This document shows, one piece after another, positions 10,311-34,722 of a stretch of DNA of 64,000 nucleotides (position 1 is the first letter of the stretch; every line of letters begins with the position of its first letter). This stretch comes from an uncultured delta proteobacterium (GTDB lineage: Bacteria; Myxococcota; Myxococcia; SLRQ01). Location of the stretch: NCBI GenBank assembly GCA_963727485.1, contig CAVSGM010000003.1, positions 512,001-576,000 on the forward strand, given 5' to 3'. The translations under genes were made by a program, and so were the position numbers. The notes beneath the pieces were generated by a model. The model saw only the letters and a program-made list of their open reading frames with translations. It did not search any database and was not told the DNA's origin.

Positions 10311-10314
<4 letters not shown>
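9379..10314 (+). CDS. ABC transporter ATP-binding protein (YbhF-like, first NBD)
   Basis: GPDGAGKTT, LSGGM, LDEPTTGVDP; ATGA overlap with the upstream gene. Confidence 0.92.
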
Positions 10315-11258
<944 letters not shown>

Positions 11259-11262
<4 letters not shown>

Positions 11263-12368
11263 AGAGCATCACCGCCGTCGCCCGCAAGGAGCTGCGCCAG
11301 CTCTCCCGGGATCCCAGGACCATCGCGGTCCTGGTGGTGTTCCCGGCGCTCCTGCTCCTCTTCTACGGCTACGTCCTCTCCTTCGACGTCCACCACGTGC
11401 GCCTCGCCGTCCTCGACCACGACCACTCGGCGACCAGCCGGGCGCTGGTGGCCTCCATGACCTCCAGCGAGTACTTCGACGCCGTGCGCCACCTGCCCTC
11501 GGCGGCCGACATCCCCGAGACCCTCGACGCCGGCACCGCGGCCATCGTCCTGGTCATCCCCCAGGGCTTCGAGAAGACCGTCCAGCGTGGAGGCACCGCC
11601 ACCGTCCAGGGCCTCATCGACGGCGCCAACGCCTCCCAGGCCCAGACCGCCCAGGGCTACGCCGAGGCCTTCGTCCAGGCCTTCGGGGCGCGCCTGGTGG
11701 CCACCGCCGCCGGCTCGGGGGTGCCGGTGAGCCCCAGGCTCCGGGTGCTCTTCAACCCCGAGCTCGCCAGCGAGAAGTTCCTCCTCCCGGGCCTGGTCGC
11801 CTTCATCCTGATGATCGCCTCCACCATCGCCACCGCCCTCTCGGTGGTGAAGGAGCGGGAGACCGGGACCATGGAGCAGCTGCTGGTCTCGCCGCTGACG
11901 CCCTCGGACGTGATCCTGGGCAAGGCCATCCCCTACGGGATCATCGCGCTGATGGCCGCGCTGCTGGTCATGGTCACCGCCCGGGTGGTCTTCGGCCTCG
12001 AGATCGCCGGGAGCAACTGGCTGCTCTTCGGGGAGACGGTGATCTTCGTCCTCGGGGCCCAGGGGCTGGGGCTGCTCATCTCCTCGATCACCGACAGCCA
12101 GCAGGTGGCCTTCCAGATCGCCACCTTCGCCACCATGCTCCCGACCCTGCTCCTCTCGGGCTTCGTCTTCCCCATCCGCTCCATGCCCCCGGTGATCCAG
12201 GGGCTCACCTACATCGTGCCGGCGCGCTACTTCGTGACCATCCTCCGGGGCATCGTCCTCAAGGGGGTGGGGATCGGCGACATCTGGCAGGAGACGGTGG
12301 CGCTGGGGATCTTCGCCACCTTCACCGTGGCGCTCGCCATCAGCCGCCTGCGGAGGGTGCGCCTGTGA
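11259..12368 (+). CDS. ABC-2 type permease (YbhS-like)
   Basis: ATGA overlap at 11259; KELRQLSRDPR, KERETGTMEQL, LSGFVFPI. Confidence 0.9.
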
Positions 12369-13629: not shown

Positions 13630-14388
13630 ATGCGAGTCGGTGGAGCACGGGAAGAAGGGCAGGCGCTGGTGGAGACCGCCATCGTCATGCCGCTCTACGT
13701 GTTCCTCATCCTCGGGCTGCTCCAGCTCGGGCTGATGCACCAGGCGCGGCTCATGGTCAAGTACGCCTCCTACCAGGCGGTACGCGCCGGGGCCCTCCAC
13801 AACGCCGACGTCACCGAGATGGAGAAGGCGGCCCTGGGGGTGCTCCTGCCCCTGGCGAGCCACAAGAGCGGCCGCAACGAGTACATCAAGAAGATCGACA
13901 GCGGGATTTCCTACGACACCAAGTGGACCGAGTACTGGACCGTGCGCCGCAACTACCTGGTGCCGGGCCTGATGAAGATCGCCCGGGTGACCATCTGCGG
14001 GCCCGTCACCTCCGACTTCGGGGGCAAGACGAAGGGCGAGATCGACTTCGACGACCCGAAGTACGACAGCTCCGCCTGGAAGACCAACCAGGCCACCAAG
14101 CTCCGGGCCCAGGTGACCTTCCACTACCGGATGCCGATCCCCTTCGCCAACGCGGTGATCGAGCGGATCATGTGGAACCTCAAGGTGCCCAGGGTCCTCT
14201 ACCTGAAGAAGAACAAGCTGGCGACGCCCAAGATCGGCCCGAAGTTCGCCGAGTACTACGGCCTGGCCAGCCAGGGCATCTACGTCATCCCCATCCGCGC
14301 CAACTACACCATGCGGATGCAGTCGAACATCTATCTGAAGAACATTCCCAAATCGAACAAGTGCGTGGTGCCATGGAAGTTCAAGTGA
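13630..14388 (+). CDS. TadE-like pseudopilin/minor pilin
   Basis: G|QALVETAIVMP prepilin site with E+5, hydrophobic helix, YASYQAVRAG; SD GGAGG before ATG 13630. Confidence 0.85.
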   Translation: MRVGGAREEGQALVETAIVMPLYVFLILGLLQLGLMHQARLMVKYASYQAVRAGALHNADVTEMEKAALGVLLPLASHKSGRNEYIKKIDSGISYDTKWTEYWTVRRNYLVPGLMKIARVTICGPVTSDFGGKTKGEIDFDDPKYDSSAWKTNQATKLRAQVTFHYRMPIPFANAVIERIMWNLKVPRVLYLKKNKLATPKIGPKFAEYYGLASQGIYVIPIRANYTMRMQSNIYLKNIPKSNKCVVPWKFK

Positions 14389-15905
14389 GAAGCGACCTCC
14401 GTGACCAGAGCGGTCAGGTGCTGGTGCTCGGCGCCTTGTCGATGCTCATCCTCGCCCTGATGCTGATGCTGAGCTTCAACCTCAGCGAGGCGATCCACAA
14501 CAAGATCCAGCTCCAGCAGCAGGCGGACGCCCACGCCTACTCCATGGCGGTGGTCGAGGCCCGGACCTTCAACTACATCGCCTACTCCAACCGGGCGATC
14601 GCGGCCGACCTGGTGGCGATGGCCACCATGCACGCCTACATGTCGATGATGTCCAGCGAGGTGGACATGCTCGGCGCCGCCGAGGTGAACATGTTCATCA
14701 TCGCCGGCGAGGAGTTCCTCCTCTGCTGCAGCTGCGGGCCGCCGTTCGTCTGCTGCAAGCTCCAGCACTGCTGGCACGGCGTGCAGGCCATCATGAAGGG
14801 GCTGAAGTTCAACCGCTACAAGGGGAAGTACGCCAAGAAGCTCAAGGGCCTCGAGAGCATGTTCAACAAGTCGATCATGCTCCTGCGAAGAATGATCGAC
14901 GCGATTCACATCTCCCAGGAGCTGATGCTCTACGACACCGCCAATGTGCTGCGGGGGCAGAAGCTCGACGAGATCCGAAAGTTCAACGACCCCCAGTCGA
15001 GCAAGAGCCTCCCGGCGCTGGTGGGGGTCAAGAACGTCGAGAACCTCCTCTGCGGGGTCCAGGGCACGCCCCTCGACAGCCTCTGCCCCCACAACAAGCT
15101 CTCGAAGGACGTGCAGGCCAAGCTCCTCGGCGAGGTCTCCAACGCCACCCGCCCCAAGTTCACCACCGACCGGGGCCTGATGGACATCTGGATGAACCTC
15201 CTCTCGACCTTCGGCAACGACCTCACCCACAAGATCCAGGGCAACGGCATCAGCTTCCCCGTCTACCACAAGGGCACCGCCAAGCTGACCCCGGGCACCA
15301 GCGGGCTGACCAGCTCCCAGGAGGCCATCGACGCCAAGGACGTGGGGGCCGAGGATCACGGCTGGCTCTTCAGCATCTTCCACGACGGGGTCTCGGTCTT
15401 CCCCTACAACGCCCACATCTACTCGGACAAGAACGGCGGCGAGCACAAGCCCAGCGAAACCCACCAGGGCCGCCACAGCGAGTTCAAGGGCCTGCACAGC
15501 TGCATGCTCTTCGGGAGCTGCTTCATCAAGTTCCGCGCCGACAGCAAGGTCAAGGACCACTACGACCAGCCCCTGGTCTACGACTACGCCACCCGCGACC
15601 TCTCGGTGACCCGCAAGGGCGGGCACGGGCCCTGGGAGCTGAACAAGCAGGGCAAGGTCGAGATGCGGTGGGGCGGCAAGACCGGCAAGCTCACCCTGCG
15701 CGCCGGCAAGGGCGCGGCCTTGAGCCAGGCGATGGTCTACTACCACCGCCTCGGCGACTGGAAGGACGCCCCGAACCTCTTCAGCCCCTACTGGCGAGCC
15801 AAGCTGCACCCCATGACCGGCACCACCGCGGCCGAGGTGCTGCTCTTCACTGGCAACACCGACGCGGCAGAGATCGCGGGGGCGCCAGGAACCCCGGTGA
15901 ACTGA
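14385..15905 (+). CDS. Large Tad/TadG-related pilin-like protein (candidate tip adhesin)
   Basis: GTGA overlap; G|QVLVLGALSMLILAL...KIQLQQQADAHAY Tad N-terminus; Cys cluster; C-terminal YYHR...PNLFSPYWRAKL. Confidence 0.8.
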   Translation: MRSDLRDQSGQVLVLGALSMLILALMLMLSFNLSEAIHNKIQLQQQADAHAYSMAVVEARTFNYIAYSNRAIAADLVAMATMHAYMSMMSSEVDMLGAAEVNMFIIAGEEFLLCCSCGPPFVCCKLQHCWHGVQAIMKGLKFNRYKGKYAKKLKGLESMFNKSIMLLRRMIDAIHISQELMLYDTANVLRGQKLDEIRKFNDPQSSKSLPALVGVKNVENLLCGVQGTPLDSLCPHNKLSKDVQAKLLGEVSNATRPKFTTDRGLMDIWMNLLSTFGNDLTHKIQGNGISFPVYHKGTAKLTPGTSGLTSSQEAIDAKDVGAEDHGWLFSIFHDGVSVFPYNAHIYSDKNGGEHKPSETHQGRHSEFKGLHSCMLFGSCFIKFRADSKVKDHYDQPLVYDYATRDLSVTRKGGHGPWELNKQGKVEMRWGGKTGKLTLRAGKGAALSQAMVYYHRLGDWKDAPNLFSPYWRAKLHPMTGTTAAEVLLFTGNTDAAEIAGAPGTPVN

Positions 15906-15906
15906 C

Positions 15907-16978
15907 ATGTTTATTCGTAGCGCAACTGGAGAGCGAGGCTCCGCCACGGTGGAGATGGCGATCAGCATGCTCGTCATCGTCCCGGTGATCCTCTACGCCC
16001 TGTTCATGGACGATCTGCTGCGCTTCCGTCTCGACGCCCAGGAGGCGGCGGTGAGCTCGGTCTGGGACTTCACCAACCGCAGCTACCAGCAGCGCACCGG
16101 TTCCGCCAACGACGCCTACGCGGTGCAGCACGTCGATCGGCTCATCTTCTGCGACCACAGCTCCGCCTTCGACAGCTTCAACCGGAACCAGGACTGCGAG
16201 GATCCGCGCCACCACGTGGCGGTGGCCGGTCACGTGTGCTGGCTCATTGGCGGGTCCGAGCAGGTCACCTGCAAGCTGGCCGACGCCAAGCTGGGGACCA
16301 GCTTCACCGGTGGGCCGGCGATGATGCCCGCCAACAAGTTCGTGAGCAGCTACAACAAGGGCGGCTTCTTCACCTGCGAGGCGAAGGAGGCGGTGCTCAA
16401 CTACCTCATCCCCAAACACTTCTTCACCCAGTTCACCACGGTGAAGCTCACCGACAAGAAGAAGTCCAAGGGCAACGTCCACACGGCGGCGTCGGGGGCC
16501 GGCCAGGATGCCGTCTACGATCTGCCCCGGGAGCAGCTCGGCCTCCTCGCCGACACCTGGGCGATGAACGACATCCCCGACATCGACCCGGGGAAGAAGG
16601 GTGGAATCCGGCGTCCAGAAGCAGTTCTACGACCGGGTGAACACCATCTACACCAAGAACCTCGCCTACCCGTTGTTCGAGGTTGCCGGCGAGGCCTTCT
16701 TCGCCAAGGCCGTCTCCAGCGGGCTGCTGAGCTTCATGTACGCCCAGACGCCCTTCGGCGGGATCATGGGCGACAACCCCTTCACCCCCAACCTCTCCCT
16801 GAAGAAACAGACGTCGGCGGGCGGGGTGAAACAGAAGATCGTCCAGGAGGGCAGCAGCGCCCACTACTTCGATCAGGGGTGGGACCAGAGCGGGACCGGC
16901 GACGGGAACTACAAGTCGACCTACTCCAACCGCGGGCAGTACTACCTCGGGCACACCAAGTCCGAGAGCGACAAGTGA
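15907..16978 (+). CDS. TadE-like minor pilin; frameshift near 16600
   Basis: G|SATVEMAISMLVIVP prepilin motif; reading continues in ORF 16601..16978. Confidence 0.75.
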
Positions 16979-16985
16979 CCTGGCC

Positions 16986-17846
16986 GTGGCGGCGCCGCAG
17001 CACAATGGCCTGGGCCGCCGGGGGTGGCTGGTACTCGCGGTCGCCGCGGCGGGCGGGGTGATCGGCGGCGTCGTCCTCGAGCGCAGCGGAGCCCCGGTCC
17101 CCGTGCCCTCCTTCGTCACCCCGTCGGTGCGTGGGGGCGGCATGCTGGAGCCGGCCCCGGCGCCGTCTCCGCCACCCGAGTCGGCCCCCGTCGCCGCTCT
17201 CGCCGGCCTGCCCAGCTACCCGGGCGCCGAGCCCCGGAGCCTCGGGGACGGGATCATGGCCGGCGGCGTGCCCATGGCGGTGGCCTACTTCGTCACCCCG
17301 GACCCGCCCCAGGACGTGATGGCCTTCTACCGCAACGCCCTCCAGGAGACCCACGAGCACGTCCTCCACGAGTGGATGACGCCCACCACCGGCTACGTCG
17401 GCTGGCACGACAAGAAGACCGGAGACCTCCACGGGGTGGTGTTCCGCCGGGAGGGCGAGAAGACCATGGTCTTCCCCTCCGCCGCCGCGCCGGCGCGGAT
17501 GTTCCAGAACCACCAGACGATGCCCGACTACCTGCCCAACCCCAAGGACGCCGAGGGGACCATGGTCGTCAAGATGGGCGCCGCAGCGGGTGGGAGCCGG
17601 CAGCTCTCGGTGGTCACCACCGTCCCCCTGACCACCGTGGGGCAGCTCCTCGACTTCTACAAGCAGGGCTTCAAGGGCAAGGGGTGGCAGGTCGAGAAGG
17701 CCGTCCTGAATACCCCGGACCTCGCCCACGTCACAGCCAGCCGACCCGACATGCGGGCCGAGACCTACCTGCACCACGTCAGCGACGACGGCAGCGGTCC
17801 CCGCGTCGAGGTCTATGTCGTTCTCACCACTCGCGACCACGCCTAG
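16986..17846 (+). CDS. Membrane-anchored protein with two repeated domains, in the Tad-like cassette
   Basis: N-terminal TM, Pro-rich linker, LPSYPGAE..DVMAFY and LPNPKDAE..QLLDFY repeats. Confidence 0.65.
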   Translation: MAAPQHNGLGRRGWLVLAVAAAGGVIGGVVLERSGAPVPVPSFVTPSVRGGGMLEPAPAPSPPPESAPVAALAGLPSYPGAEPRSLGDGIMAGGVPMAVAYFVTPDPPQDVMAFYRNALQETHEHVLHEWMTPTTGYVGWHDKKTGDLHGVVFRREGEKTMVFPSAAAPARMFQNHQTMPDYLPNPKDAEGTMVVKMGAAAGGSRQLSVVTTVPLTTVGQLLDFYKQGFKGKGWQVEKAVLNTPDLAHVTASRPDMRAETYLHHVSDDGSGPRVEVYVVLTTRDHA

Positions 17847-17869
17847 AGCGGGTCAGGAGGCACACTCGG

Positions 17870-18112
17870 ATGCGCACCTACAAGCTCGGACTCACCCTCG
17901 TCGCCCTCTTCTTCGGTCTGGCCATGGCCCGGCCCGCCTTCGCCGACGCCGCCCCCAAGAGCTGCAAGGCGCAGTGCGAGGCCGACACCCACGAGTGCAA
18001 GAAGATGTGCAAGGAGCACGCGCCGCCCAAGGTCCAGGGCCGCTGCACCTCCACCTGCAAGAAGGTCGAGCAGCAGTGCAAGGCGGAGTGCGACAAGGGT
18101 GGCTCCCAGTGA
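17870..18112 (+). CDS. Small secreted Cys-rich protein (four CX3C motifs), 80 aa
   Basis: SD AGGAGG; signal peptide ending AFA; CKAQC-CKKMC-CTSTC-CKAEC. Confidence 0.8.
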   Translation: MRTYKLGLTLVALFFGLAMARPAFADAAPKSCKAQCEADTHECKKMCKEHAPPKVQGRCTSTCKKVEQQCKAECDKGGSQ

Positions 18113-18303
18113 TCCCCCGGCTTCGTCGGTGGTGGCAGCGGGCGCGGGACGAGTCCGGCCAGGCCACGGTGGAGTACGCGGCGGTGACCGTGGCCATGCT
18201 CGGCGGCGGGGTGCTCTCGTGGCCGTTCTTCCTGGGCCTGATCAACGCCTTCCAGACGTACTACCACTCGATCTACTACGTGCTGCAGCTCCCCATCACC
18301 TGA
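18109..18303 (+). CDS. Flp-like small pilin, 64 aa
   Basis: GTGA overlap; DESG|QATVEYA Flp-type motif followed by a hydrophobic helix. Confidence 0.75.
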   Translation: MIPRLRRWWQRARDESGQATVEYAAVTVAMLGGGVLSWPFFLGLINAFQTYYHSIYYVLQLPIT

Positions 18304-18877: not shown

Positions 18878-20896
18878 ATGCGGAACCGTCGAGCCCTCCC
18901 CCTGGCCCTGGTCCTCGTCCTCGTCGCCGCCGGCTGCGGCCCGGGTCAGACCAAGACCCTCCCGCCGCTGAACATCCAGAGCGGCTGCAACCCCCTGGCC
19001 GCGGACTGGGACTGCATGCTGCCCTACCCCTCGGACGTGTTCCGGGTGAAGGACGCCTCCCTGCCCAGCGGCTACCGGGTGAAGCTGTCCCGCAACGCCA
19101 CCCTGCACACCGACAAGGGCGAGGCGGTGGACTTCACCGTCACCCACCCCGCCGACGGGTTCTCCATCCTCCCCCAGATCCTGGTGCTCTTCCCCAAGGG
19201 GGTCGACGACTCCAACCTGCCCATCCTCGCCGACGCCGCGGGGCTGCCCAACCACCCGGGGATCGCCACCTCGACCACCGCGGCCAGCCCCACGGCGCTC
19301 ATCGACGCCAAGACCGGCGAGCGCATCCTCCACCTCGCCGAGATCGATCCCCGGGCCGTGGACCCCACCACCGGGGCCGTCGAGACCGCGCGCCAGGGCC
19401 TCTCCATCCGGCCCCTGGTGCGCCTCGAGCACTCGACCCGCTACATCGTCGCCCTCCACGGCCTCAAGGACAAGGACGGCAACCTCCTGGCGCCCCCCGA
19501 GGGCTTCCGGCGCATCCGCGACCAGGAGACCGCCGGGGACCCGGTCCTGGGCCCGCTGGCCGACCACTACGAGAAGGACATCTTCCCGGTGCTGAAGCAG
19601 GCGGGCATCGACCGGTCGACCCTGCAGCTCGCCTGGGACTTCACCACCGAGAGCGAGAAGAACGTCACCGGCGACATGTTCGCCATGCGCGACGAGCTGG
19701 TGGCGAGCCTCAAGCAGACGCCGCCCACGGTGGCGATCACCAAGGTGAACGACAGCGTCGGCGACGGCCACACCTTCCGGCGCATCGACGGCACCCTCAC
19801 CGTGCCCCTGTTCATGGACAGCGCCCAGGCCGGGGCCGCCATCCATCGGGACGCCAGCGGAAAGGTGGCGGAGAACGGCACGGTGAAGGTCCCGTTCCTG
19901 ATGCTGATCCCCAACTCGGTGGCCGCGGACATCGCCGCGGGCAAGCCCGCCGACCGGATCTTCCAGTTCGGCCACGGGTTCTTCGGCAGCCGGGAGGAGA
20001 TCGCCAGCCACTACGTCTACAAGTTCGCCGACCGGGAGCACATGGTGGTCTTCGGCGTCGACTGGTGGGGGATGAGCACCGCCGACGCCATCATCGCCGC
20101 CGGGGACCTGTTGAGCGACATGAGCAACGGCTTCCGCTTCGCCGACCGGACCCTCCAGGGGATGGCGAACTTCATCGCCCTGACCTACGCGGCTCCCCAG
20201 ATGACCCAGGACGCCTTCAAGGTCCCGGACGGCGGCGGCACCCTGAAGCCCGCCTTCGACCCGTCCACCCTCTACTACTACGGCATCAGCCAGGGCGGGA
20301 TCCTCGGCGGGACCTACGTGGCCCTGGCGCCGAAGATCCAGAAGGCCACCCTCTCGGTGAGCGGCGCCGGCTTCCCCTTCATGATGTTCCGGGCCACGCC
20401 GTTCTCGCACTTCCTCGAGGTGATCAACGAGAACGTCTCCGACCCCCTGGATCAGCGCAAGTTCGTGACCCTCACCTCCACGGTCTTCGATCGCTTCGAC
20501 CCCATCGAGTACGCGCCCTGGGACCTCCATGGGCGCACCCCCGACGACCCGGCCGAGCGGCAGATCCTGATGCAGACCGGGATTGGGGACACCGAGGTCC
20601 CCAACCCCGCCGACCACCTCCAGGCCCGGGCCATCGGGGTGACCCACATGATCCCGGCCCCCCGGGACATCGTCGATCTCCCCTCGGCCAAGGGGCCCCT
20701 GAAGTCGGCGCTGGTGGAGTGGGACTTCGGCATCCCCAAGCCGCTGCCGGGGACCTACTCGCACCTGGAGGCCGCCGACAACCAGGTCCACGAGGGCGTG
20801 CGGATCCAGACCACCGCCGAGGACATGATCGACCAGTTCTTCCAGCCCGGCGGGATGATCAACGACACCTGCAACGGGCCCTGCGTGGCCCAGTAG
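18878..20896 (+). CDS. Lipoprotein with a C-terminal alpha/beta-hydrolase (lipase-like) domain
   Basis: Lipobox AAGC; GHGFFG, GISQGG nucleophile elbow, GDTEVPN and NQVHE as candidate Asp/His. Confidence 0.7.
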   Translation: MRNRRALPLALVLVLVAAGCGPGQTKTLPPLNIQSGCNPLAADWDCMLPYPSDVFRVKDASLPSGYRVKLSRNATLHTDKGEAVDFTVTHPADGFSILPQILVLFPKGVDDSNLPILADAAGLPNHPGIATSTTAASPTALIDAKTGERILHLAEIDPRAVDPTTGAVETARQGLSIRPLVRLEHSTRYIVALHGLKDKDGNLLAPPEGFRRIRDQETAGDPVLGPLADHYEKDIFPVLKQAGIDRSTLQLAWDFTTESEKNVTGDMFAMRDELVASLKQTPPTVAITKVNDSVGDGHTFRRIDGTLTVPLFMDSAQAGAAIHRDASGKVAENGTVKVPFLMLIPNSVAADIAAGKPADRIFQFGHGFFGSREEIASHYVYKFADREHMVVFGVDWWGMSTADAIIAAGDLLSDMSNGFRFADRTLQGMANFIALTYAAPQMTQDAFKVPDGGGTLKPAFDPSTLYYYGISQGGILGGTYVALAPKIQKATLSVSGAGFPFMMFRATPFSHFLEVINENVSDPLDQRKFVTLTSTVFDRFDPIEYAPWDLHGRTPDDPAERQILMQTGIGDTEVPNPADHLQARAIGVTHMIPAPRDIVDLPSAKGPLKSALVEWDFGIPKPLPGTYSHLEAADNQVHEGVRIQTTAEDMIDQFFQPGGMINDTCNGPCVAQ

Positions 20897-20959: not shown

Positions 20960-21378
20960 ATCCCCTGCGGACCGGCTCTCGGAAGGCCACCCGGCCTTCG
21001 TCGTGCTGGACCTGGTGAAGGAGCCGGACCACTCGGCGGCCAGCGAGTTACGGCGGCGGCACCTGGAGTCGCTGGCGGGGCTGGTGCGTTTGGGGCACGT
21101 ATCGCTGGACGGGACGAAGCTGAAGGCGAACGCGTCGAAGCACAAGGCGATGAGCTACGGGCGGATGAAGAAGACCGAGCGGGAGCTGGCGGAGCAGACC
21201 GGCGATCCACGCCCGGCGGAAGGTGATCGGCGAGCCGGTCTTCGGGCAGATCAAAGGGGCCCGAGGAGAGCGGCAGCTGCTTCTGCGCGGGCTGAAGAAG
21301 GCACCCGGGAAGTGGCGCCTGTACCGCCTGACGCACGACCTGCTGAAGCGCTACCGGGCGGGGCTCGCGGCCAGCTGA
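20960..21378 (+). mobile_element. Internally deleted IS1182-family transposase remnant
   Basis: Fragments RLSEGHPAFVVLDLV, PDH...RRRHL, GHVSLDGTKLKANASKHKAMSY and, in another frame, RRKVIGEPVFGQIK...LLRGL...THDLLK. Confidence 0.8.
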
Positions 21379-21525
21379 GCGGGTGAGCCGCGGAAGGCTC
21401 CGGGTGCCAAGTGGTCCGGAGCCCTCCAACCCCCAACCCCCGGGAGAGCCGGTCCGGCCTCCGGCCGGCCGGCTGGCCCCCGCCGGCGGATCCTCCCGCG
21501 GGGGCGTTACCTCAACGGGCGCCTA

Positions 21526-21919
21526 CTAGAGGGTGTCGAGGGCCCGGGTGAGCTTGGTGCGGACCTCCTCGGCGAGCCCCTTCACCCCGGGGTTGTCGAT
21601 GAGGGACGACATCACCACGTAGGGATCGATGGCGGCGACCATGGTCTTGCCCGCGTCGTCCTCCCAGAGGACCACGTTGCAGGGGAGCAGGACCCCCACG
21701 TCGAGCTCGGCCGAGAGGGCCTTGTGGGCGAGCGGCGGGTTGCAGGCGCCGAGGATTCTTGTACTTGCGGAAGTCGACGTCGAGCTTCTTCTTCAGGGTC
21801 GCCTTGACGTCGATCTCGGTGAGCACCCCGAACCCCTCGGTCTTGAGGGCGGCGGGGACCTTCTCCAGGGCGTCCTCGTAGGAGATGTCGAGGACCTTGT
21901 GGATGGCATAGTTGGCCAT
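21526..21919 (-). CDS. DUF302 family protein; one extra base near 21758
   Basis: EGFGVLTEIDVKATLKKKLDVDFRKYK, then ILGACNP...LLPCNVV in the shifted frame; SD GGAGG. Confidence 0.85.
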
Positions 21920-21964
21920 GTGAGCCTCCTTTTGGCCCACAGACTAGACCGGCTGGCTCCGAGG

Positions 21965-33479: not shown

Positions 33480-34722
<1,243 letters not shown>

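Follow-up and report, generated by a model that had tools for sequence, protein, structure and literature searches.

A six-gene cassette in an uncultured delta proteobacterium, probably the Tip3 part of a Kil pilus, with two conserved companion genes

A 64-kb stretch of DNA from an uncultured delta proteobacterium (its full length is termed 'the window' here) carries, at positions 13630..18303, a cassette of six genes that, by sequence and gene order, is an ortholog of the tip3 cluster of Myxococcus xanthus, kilM3-kilN3-kilL3-mxan_1149-kilO. Because it is the counterpart of that published tip set, the cassette likely has the same job: it probably represents the Tip3 module of a Kil (Tad-like) pilus and would form the tip of a filament that makes contact with prey, its motor being encoded at other places in the genome. 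The M. xanthus set consists of kilM3 (mxan_1146), kilN3 (1147), kilL3 (1148), mxan_1149 and kilO (1150), and stand-alone tip clusters of this kind, with their motor encoded at a distance, have already been described in that organism (Herrou et al. 2025, PMC12075869). As a tip it is thus of a known kind; the new element is a pair of conserved companion genes, referred to below as gene 4 and gene 5. The host, which has a 5.55 Mb genome that is 93% complete, shares a class with Myxococcus and belongs to a separate order represented by five genomes.

The six genes, numbered in cassette order, all lie on the plus strand, with spacings between successive genes of -16, +1, +7, +23 and -4 bases. Gene 1 (13630..14388), the kilM3 ortholog, encodes a predicted TadE-like minor pilin of 252 amino acids with the prepilin N-terminus G|QALVE, and matches the Pfam TadE profile above cut-off (expectation value, E, 3.5e-11). 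Gene 2 (14373..15905), the kilN3 ortholog, encodes a large, predicted TadG-like tip pilin of 510 amino acids (G|QVLVL), in which leucine replaces the glutamate found at position 5 of pilins (Glu5); all of the 52 orthologs aligned have this Leu5. Gene 3 (15907..16978), the kilL3 ortholog, encodes a minor pilin of about 355 amino acids (G|SATVE) and carries a one-base frameshift near 16605. Gene 4 (16986..17846) stands at the position of mxan_1149, and its product has an N-terminal membrane anchor, a proline-rich linker and two tandem alpha/beta domains that resemble DcrB and PA1624 in predicted fold. Gene 5 (17870..18112) encodes a secreted peptide of 80 amino acids, with a signal peptide followed by eight cysteines in the pattern CX3CX6CX3C twice, and gene 6 (18109..18303), the kilO ortholog, encodes an Flp adapter pilin of 64 amino acids (G|QATVEY). 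The prepilin cleavage motifs recur in orthologs, as do the cysteine columns of genes 1, 2 and 3 (2, 10 and 5 cysteines respectively, with disulfides that are predicted only). A preliminary description, made from the letters alone, had given the same layout of tightly packed co-directional genes, comprising four prepilins, a membrane-anchored repeat protein and a secreted cysteine-rich peptide. Genes 2-4 gave no match in the profile search with the Pfam copy used, the sole Pfam match of gene 6 was DUF4244, below cut-off, and an NCBIfam search gave no match for genes 1-4 or 6.

A protein search that used gene 2 as the query gave 112 matches. Those with a name are myxobacterial or deltaproteobacterial, and one cluster among the matches includes MXAN_1147 of M. 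xanthus DK1622, the protein named KilN3 by Herrou et al. (PMC12075869). The two align over their full length with 38% identity (528 columns, E 3e-106) and are mutual best matches among the Tip genes compared: in the reverse search MXAN_1147 returned gene 2 at 8.6e-93, and the next match in the host genome at 1.2e-11. A scan of a genome collection with gene 2 as the single query gave 51 pattern matches, 0 of them confirmed. For comparison of the tip clusters, two Myxococcus-genus genomes were used (G024 and G026, the KilN3 of the latter being 98% identical to MXAN_1147). Gene 1 is 48% identical to the first tip3 gene of G026, as against 28-33% for tip1, tip2 and tip4 counterparts; gene 3 matches KilL3 of G026 in a two-piece tblastn alignment (38% and 31%, E 4e-54); gene 4 is 29% identical to the gene between kilL3 and kilO; and gene 6 is 47% identical over 59 amino acids (E 7e-15) to the last tip3 gene, itself an exact match to the published kilO primer, as against 34% for KilK. 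Published primers confirm the labels kilO, kilK, kilP, tip1 and tip2, with 0-3 mismatches. In trees of 35 KilM and KilN sequences the window genes group with tip3, the KilM split having support of 94/97; the KilN tree, made by a quick method, is less resolved, and its tip4-like sequences nest, with weak support, within the tip3-like ones. The cassette thus combines the KilM-KilN-KilL order and its prepilin cleavage sites, orthology to tip3 rather than to tip1, tip2 or tip4, a KilO-type adapter and cysteine-rich pilins.

The preliminary description had further proposed that this is a stand-alone tip module, served by core machinery elsewhere, and that neither a secretin nor a Tad ATPase, platform or peptidase occurs in the window. 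Both proposals were borne out. Inside the window, tblastn with seven host Kil core proteins gave no match and a profile search found no secretin or TadB/C; the one secretion-ATPase match is not CpaF but a frameshifted gene of PilT/PilU type (33480-34500, plus strand), whose several frameshifts are probably assembly errors. A PilT-like gene also lies directly upstream of tip3 in another genome (G003). Elsewhere in the host genome, an FHA gene followed by kilA, kilC, kilF and kilD, in the order of M. xanthus cluster I, lies at C2:755586-762497, the FHA-fused KilF being 70-72% identical to its Myxococcus-genus ortholog. Cluster II genes kilB, kilG and kilH lie at C11:682858-685461 (56%, 66% and 64% identity respectively to Myxococcus-genus counterparts), and KilP is encoded at C11:752435-752695, with 61-65% identity to the gene matched by the published kilP primers, so that KilA, C, D and F, KilB, G and H, and KilP are all present. 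Around kil cluster II (C11:680549-686874) a sigma factor, an anti-sigma factor and an FHA gene are retained beside kilB, kilG and kilH, and at C11:409825-410400 the N-terminal portion of KilC has a further match (35%, E 4e-24), with no secretin-domain match there.

Type III secretion system (T3SS) export genes are also present, at C5:57587-66263, with an SctN-like ATPase at C11:660170; a homolog of SctV is among the T3SS genes of the genome. The whole genome has three secretins; the T3SS cluster has none, and there is no fourth secretin to serve it. In two Myxococcus-genus genomes SctN has one strong match only, to a single ATPase at 49% identity.

The present assignment draws on orthology, on the order of the genes and on the core genes that the genome contains, and the steps by which the pilus would work are carried over from M. 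xanthus as described by Herrou et al. (PMC12075869). By that analogy, the prepilins would be cleaved by KilA, and KilM3, KilN3 and KilL3 would assemble into a disulfide-rich spearhead (a KilL-KilM-KilN heterotrimer is the published AlphaFold model for M. xanthus), which KilO would couple to the KilP filament. Upon prey contact, the KilF ATPase and the KilG/H platform would extend the pilus through the KilC secretin, and killing mediated by Tip3 would need a needle-less T3SS. Gene 4, predicted to be periplasmic and tethered to the inner membrane, may hold or load the KilN-containing tip before extrusion, by analogy with DcrB, and gene 5 would be a dispensable secreted helper. In M. xanthus, Tip3 alone supports killing, Tips 1-3 have no killing activity when the T3SS is absent, and Tip4 carries or binds a toxic activity independent of the T3SS (Herrou et al., PMC12075869). 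In the DiscOperon preprint (10.64898/2026.08.20.745974), kilO is predicted to share an operon with tip3.

Several observations weigh against a Tip3 predation pilus in this host. SctV is tied between two Myxococcus T3SS clusters (57% versus 60-61%), and its gene is split in this assembly; cluster II, at C11:680549-686874, is without the tip4 and kilK genes that Myxococcus has between the genes of that cluster; only two tip clusters were found in a genome of the completeness given above; kilL3 is frameshifted in the assembly, and its repair is based on one low-depth contig; the role in predation is carried over to the host organism by orthology; and in M. xanthus itself Tip3 was the weak tip against the prey tested (Herrou et al., PMC12075869).

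In most bacteria, Tad pili are adhesins. A true Tip3 ortholog might therefore top a pilus that serves here for attachment to surfaces or partner cells rather than for killing of prey, and the genome, which is small for a myxobacterial predator and has two tip clusters found, together with T3SS genes at two separate places and an SctV that cannot be assigned to the predation cluster, would agree with such a use. It is nonetheless improbable, in view of the Kil-specific features that have been retained (the FHA-fused KilF, KilD, KilP and the order of cluster I) and of an SctN whose only strong match in the two Myxococcus-genus genomes is the single ATPase mentioned above.

The frame of gene 3 changes at about 16603-16606. 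A short-read contig of 152 bases (depth 3.4), otherwise identical to the assembly, does not have base 16605, and because of that contig, and of the other frameshifted genes in the same assembly, the kilL3 frameshift is probably an assembly error. A decaying cassette, with a genuine frameshift and Tip3 production lost, would explain the assembly as it stands but is hardly credible against that short-read contig, the equally frameshifted PilT-type gene and SctV, and the two halves of kilL3, both of which keep a high third-position guanine-plus-cytosine (GC) content and match intact orthologs. Apparent frame changes also occur in a pair of ATP-binding cassette (ABC) ATPase and permease genes (10311-12368, plus strand) and in a small gene on the minus strand (21526-21940), consistent with an indel-prone assembly.

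It had also been noted early on that the pilin genes are poorer in GC and richer in lysine and asparagine than their neighbours, and the cassette had been proposed as an interchangeable unit whose accessory genes might set prey specificity. The compositional observation stands: ranked against 2,895 filtered long open reading frames, genes 1-3 fall within the bottom 1% by GC and within the highest 4% by lysine plus asparagine. Its use as the mark of a foreign cassette does not. Because third-position GC is ordinary (31st-55th percentile), because the core kilB, kilG and kilH genes are as low in GC as genes 1-3, and because the orthologs are similarly rich in lysine and asparagine (medians 0.09-0.11), the low GC of the pilin genes is an amino-acid effect and no sign of recent transfer. 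A recently acquired, swappable cassette with accessory genes that choose the prey, although it would account for the low GC, for flanking genes unlike those at the Myxococcus tip3 locus and for a fast-evolving, patchily distributed gene 5, is very improbable on these grounds and on those of distribution: two classes of the phylum show the six-gene order, gene 4 is common to all tip types, and gene 5 was found in only 3 of 20 genomes of the genus that contains Myxococcus, whereas KilN3 was found in 29 of 29 genomes of a different sample. Accessory genes as setters of prey specificity likewise find no support, gene 4 being predicted to be periplasmic and membrane-anchored and being shared by four tip types, and gene 5 being missing where, according to Herrou et al. 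(PMC12075869), Tip3 alone kills. Prey selectivity, if there is any, is more likely a property of the variable middle part of KilN3 than of genes 4 and 5. Column conservation in gene 2 is 0.75-0.84 at residues 31-90 and 451-480 and 0.40-0.55 at residues 91-360; a KilN3 with conserved ends and a variable middle fits the proposal of Herrou et al. (PMC12075869) that KilN recognizes prey.

Of 301 genomes sampled from the phylum, 115, with the host among them, gave a KilN3 match at E of 1e-45 or below. The best 80 of 142 tip3 loci found with a KilN3 alignment were compared, 77 of them with at least 700 bases after gene 4. Gene 1 is present in 78 of the 80 and gene 3 in all 80; gene 4 is present in 78, both misses being cut by locus ends; and, where the flank suffices, kilO follows in 74 of 77. 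In a family of another class the full six-gene order occurs in 6 of 8 loci, the others being one cut by a contig end and one with a repeated kilM at the end of its stretch. Because gene 5 is found in 54 of the 77 loci and in that other class, as against its scarcity in the Myxococcus-containing genus, the six-gene form is the widespread one, common outside Myxococcus, and M. xanthus has a five-gene form.

Gene 5 is modelled as two helices (predicted local distance difference test score, pLDDT, 88.2), and a disulfide-stapled helical hairpin is predicted. Its homologs lie between gene 4 and kilO in 49 of the 54 loci. Sequence identity among them is low (18-43%), and in an alignment of 52 members six cysteines are invariant, with eight cysteines in 42 members and six in 10. 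A gene-5 profile matched in 43 of 121 genomes of the class, with 45 of 47 matches no more than 3 kb downstream of KilN3; the profile was itself built from tip3 loci, so that all this proximity establishes is the rarity of the family at other places. No family could be assigned to the peptide: a Pfam T4 Spackle match (E 0.015) fell below cut-off, the best Atlas value of 0.86 was a lead only, and Foldseek gave no match at E of 0.001 or less. Because gene 5 is absent from the tip3 cluster of M. xanthus type, where Tip3 works, it would not be essential there, unless a peptide of the tip1 cluster substitutes for it. A secreted eight-cysteine peptide (CX3CX10CX3C twice) does lie between kilL1 and the gene-4 homolog in the tip1 cluster of G024 (L106:7861-8205). 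Its design is similar to that of gene 5, but the spacers are longer and it did not score with the gene-5 profile, which gives no support for homology between the two.

The AlphaFold2 model of gene 4 (pLDDT 91.6) consists of an N-terminal hydrophobic segment, the linker and the two domains. The protein has the precomputed Pfam assignment PF27226 and no match to Pfam DcrB, and its closest folds are PA1624 (PMC7716261; Z score, Z, 11.1; root-mean-square deviation, rmsd, 2.4; 107 residues aligned) and DcrB (Z 9.1, rmsd 2.8, 96 aligned), followed by SciW (Z 8.2) and BamC (Z 8.0). The likeness to DcrB and PA1624, with their Mog1p-PsbP-like periplasmic domains, lies in the fold of each domain and in the periplasmic location predicted for gene 4; gene 4 differs in sequence (9-12% identity), in its two tandem domains and in having no link to Lpp, and function cannot be read from likeness of fold. 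DcrB, which is anchored in the inner membrane, binds Lpp and assists in its maturation (PMC13712963). Gene 4 can be described as a predicted periplasmic, membrane-anchored candidate for a tip-assembly factor.

Foldseek, on the other hand, placed immunity proteins of type VI secretion systems first (TplEi/Tli4, E 6e-4 to 3e-3), and gene 4 might instead protect the cell against a toxic activity of the tip, a role to which the T3SS-independent activity of Tip4, the periplasmic location and the occurrence of one copy per tip are suited. This is unlikely, since the template modelling (TM) scores of those matches are only 0.24-0.26, with rmsd of about 15-16, since the wider search puts PA1624, DcrB, SciW and BamC first, and since Tips 1-3 do not kill without the T3SS, yet all carry the gene. 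No cognate lipase effector gene was seen inside the cassette.

With a broader profile, a gene-4 homolog was found after kilL in each of the four G024 tip clusters (E 3.5e-9, 1.3e-11, 4e-46 and 1e-22) and in both tip clusters of the host. One protein (P0229, 490 amino acids) is a natural fusion of a shortened, degenerate KilN3 with the gene-4 domain pair. Complex prediction, performed on orthologs from locus L022 with KilN and KilL on one side and gene 4 as partner, and using purpose-made alignments, gave a score of 0.47, rated as 'weak support' (best of 3 controls 0.01), which fell to 0.01 when KilN was replaced; the runs agreed in at least 86% of contacts, with a partner pLDDT of at least 73. 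In the calibration, the pairs that attained this mark numbered 116 of 157 solved and 2 of 215 mismatched, but among those at or below 0.60 were only 18 solved pairs beside both mismatches. A KilN-dependent binding of gene 4 to the tip is thus weakly supported.

Taken further, these observations suggest, as a tentative proposal that is rather more doubtful than probable, that Kil tips are four-part modules: each cluster would encode a periplasmic protein of two domains (mxan_1149, mxan_4657 and the genes that follow kilL1 and kilL2), which would bind the KilN of that cluster and load or license the tip at the base of the pilus, and the ancestral Tip3 would also have had a disulfide-stapled secreted hairpin, since lost in most Myxococcus. 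Other observations tell against the role given to gene 4. The fusion is one degenerate sequence only, which may have arisen by deletion; in the score range of the complex prediction, with purpose-made alignments used, a pass is more often wrong than right; a tandem second copy of tip3 in locus L063 has no gene 4, at odds with a strict one-to-one role; and an orphan kilN4-like gene in G024 is also without it. That orphan (L109:7995-10091) stands alone: neither kilM, kilL nor gene 4 was found next to it. The L063 copy, which has M, N, L and kilO, belongs to a tandem tip3 duplication seen in some Myxococcus species (L063:6162-14760; also L060, L061 and L068).

How the Kil system selects its tip is unclear according to Herrou et al. 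(PMC12075869), and the four-part module, if true, would supply the tip-selection step that is missing for myxobacterial predation. The tip deletions published in that work cover kilM-kilN-kilL only and leave the genes at the gene-4 position in place; the conserved fourth gene in all four clusters and its weakly predicted, KilN-dependent contact therefore lend themselves to a direct single-gene test in the existing M. xanthus single-tip strains. Literature searches on the accessory genes of the cassette, and on locus tags including MXAN_1149 and MXAN_4657, found no paper (subscription papers lay outside their scope). The two tags are absent from the supplements of Herrou et al. that were searched, the main synteny figure, which may show genes 4 and 5, lying outside that scope; and MXAN_4657 is absent from the text of Seef 2021 (PMC8460266).

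The paralogous cassette sought in the rest of the host genome was found at C2:1393323-1398073 (L001:5323-10073), near dnaN-recF-gyrB. It has the order KilM-KilN-KilL-gene 4-Flp, without the cysteine peptide, and groups with paralogs of two genomes of the same family as a sister clade of tip4; it may represent an undescribed tip type or the 'fifth tip' of Herrou et al. (PMC12075869). A likeness, judged by eye, of the genes beside it to mxan_4654/4656 was not confirmed by tblastn.

A scan for promoters and terminators gave 0 promoters and 1 terminator, against 2.7 expected. A search of sequencing runs listed no RNA run; the best DNA run has 0.48 of the words and may be related to the source of the assembly. 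Two genes downstream of the cassette lies a predicted lipoprotein of 672 amino acids without a Pfam match (18878-20896, plus strand), followed near 21000-21390 by what appears by eye to be a transposase-like remnant.

Set beside the canonical tad/cpa loci, with their TadE/F/G minor pilins, the cassette has the same TadE-like N-termini and an Flp pilin, but contains no secretin, ATPase, platform or peptidase, and its tip domains are large, cysteine-rich and of Kil type. With the tip4/kilK region of M. xanthus (mxan_4655-4660), and with tip1 and tip2, it shares the KilM-KilN-KilL order followed by a member of the gene-4 family; in contrast, alignment to those pilins is confined to their ends (KilN E 1e-5 to 1e-17), the sequences form separate clades in both trees, and the gene-4 homologs of tip1, tip2 and tip4 seem, as judged by eye, to have signal peptides in place of the membrane anchor of the tip3 type. 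From M. xanthus tip3 it differs by an additional gene, lying between the mxan_1149 ortholog and kilO, for a secreted peptide with eight cysteines, in a host with two tip clusters found rather than four, and with kilB, kilG and kilH without tip4 genes beside them. In gene order, in the 38-48% identity of its four pilins, in its stand-alone place, in its own Flp adapter and in the split core clusters elsewhere in the genome, it is otherwise alike, and it widens the range of Tip3 and the Kil core to take in a small uncultured order that is not part of the Myxococcales.

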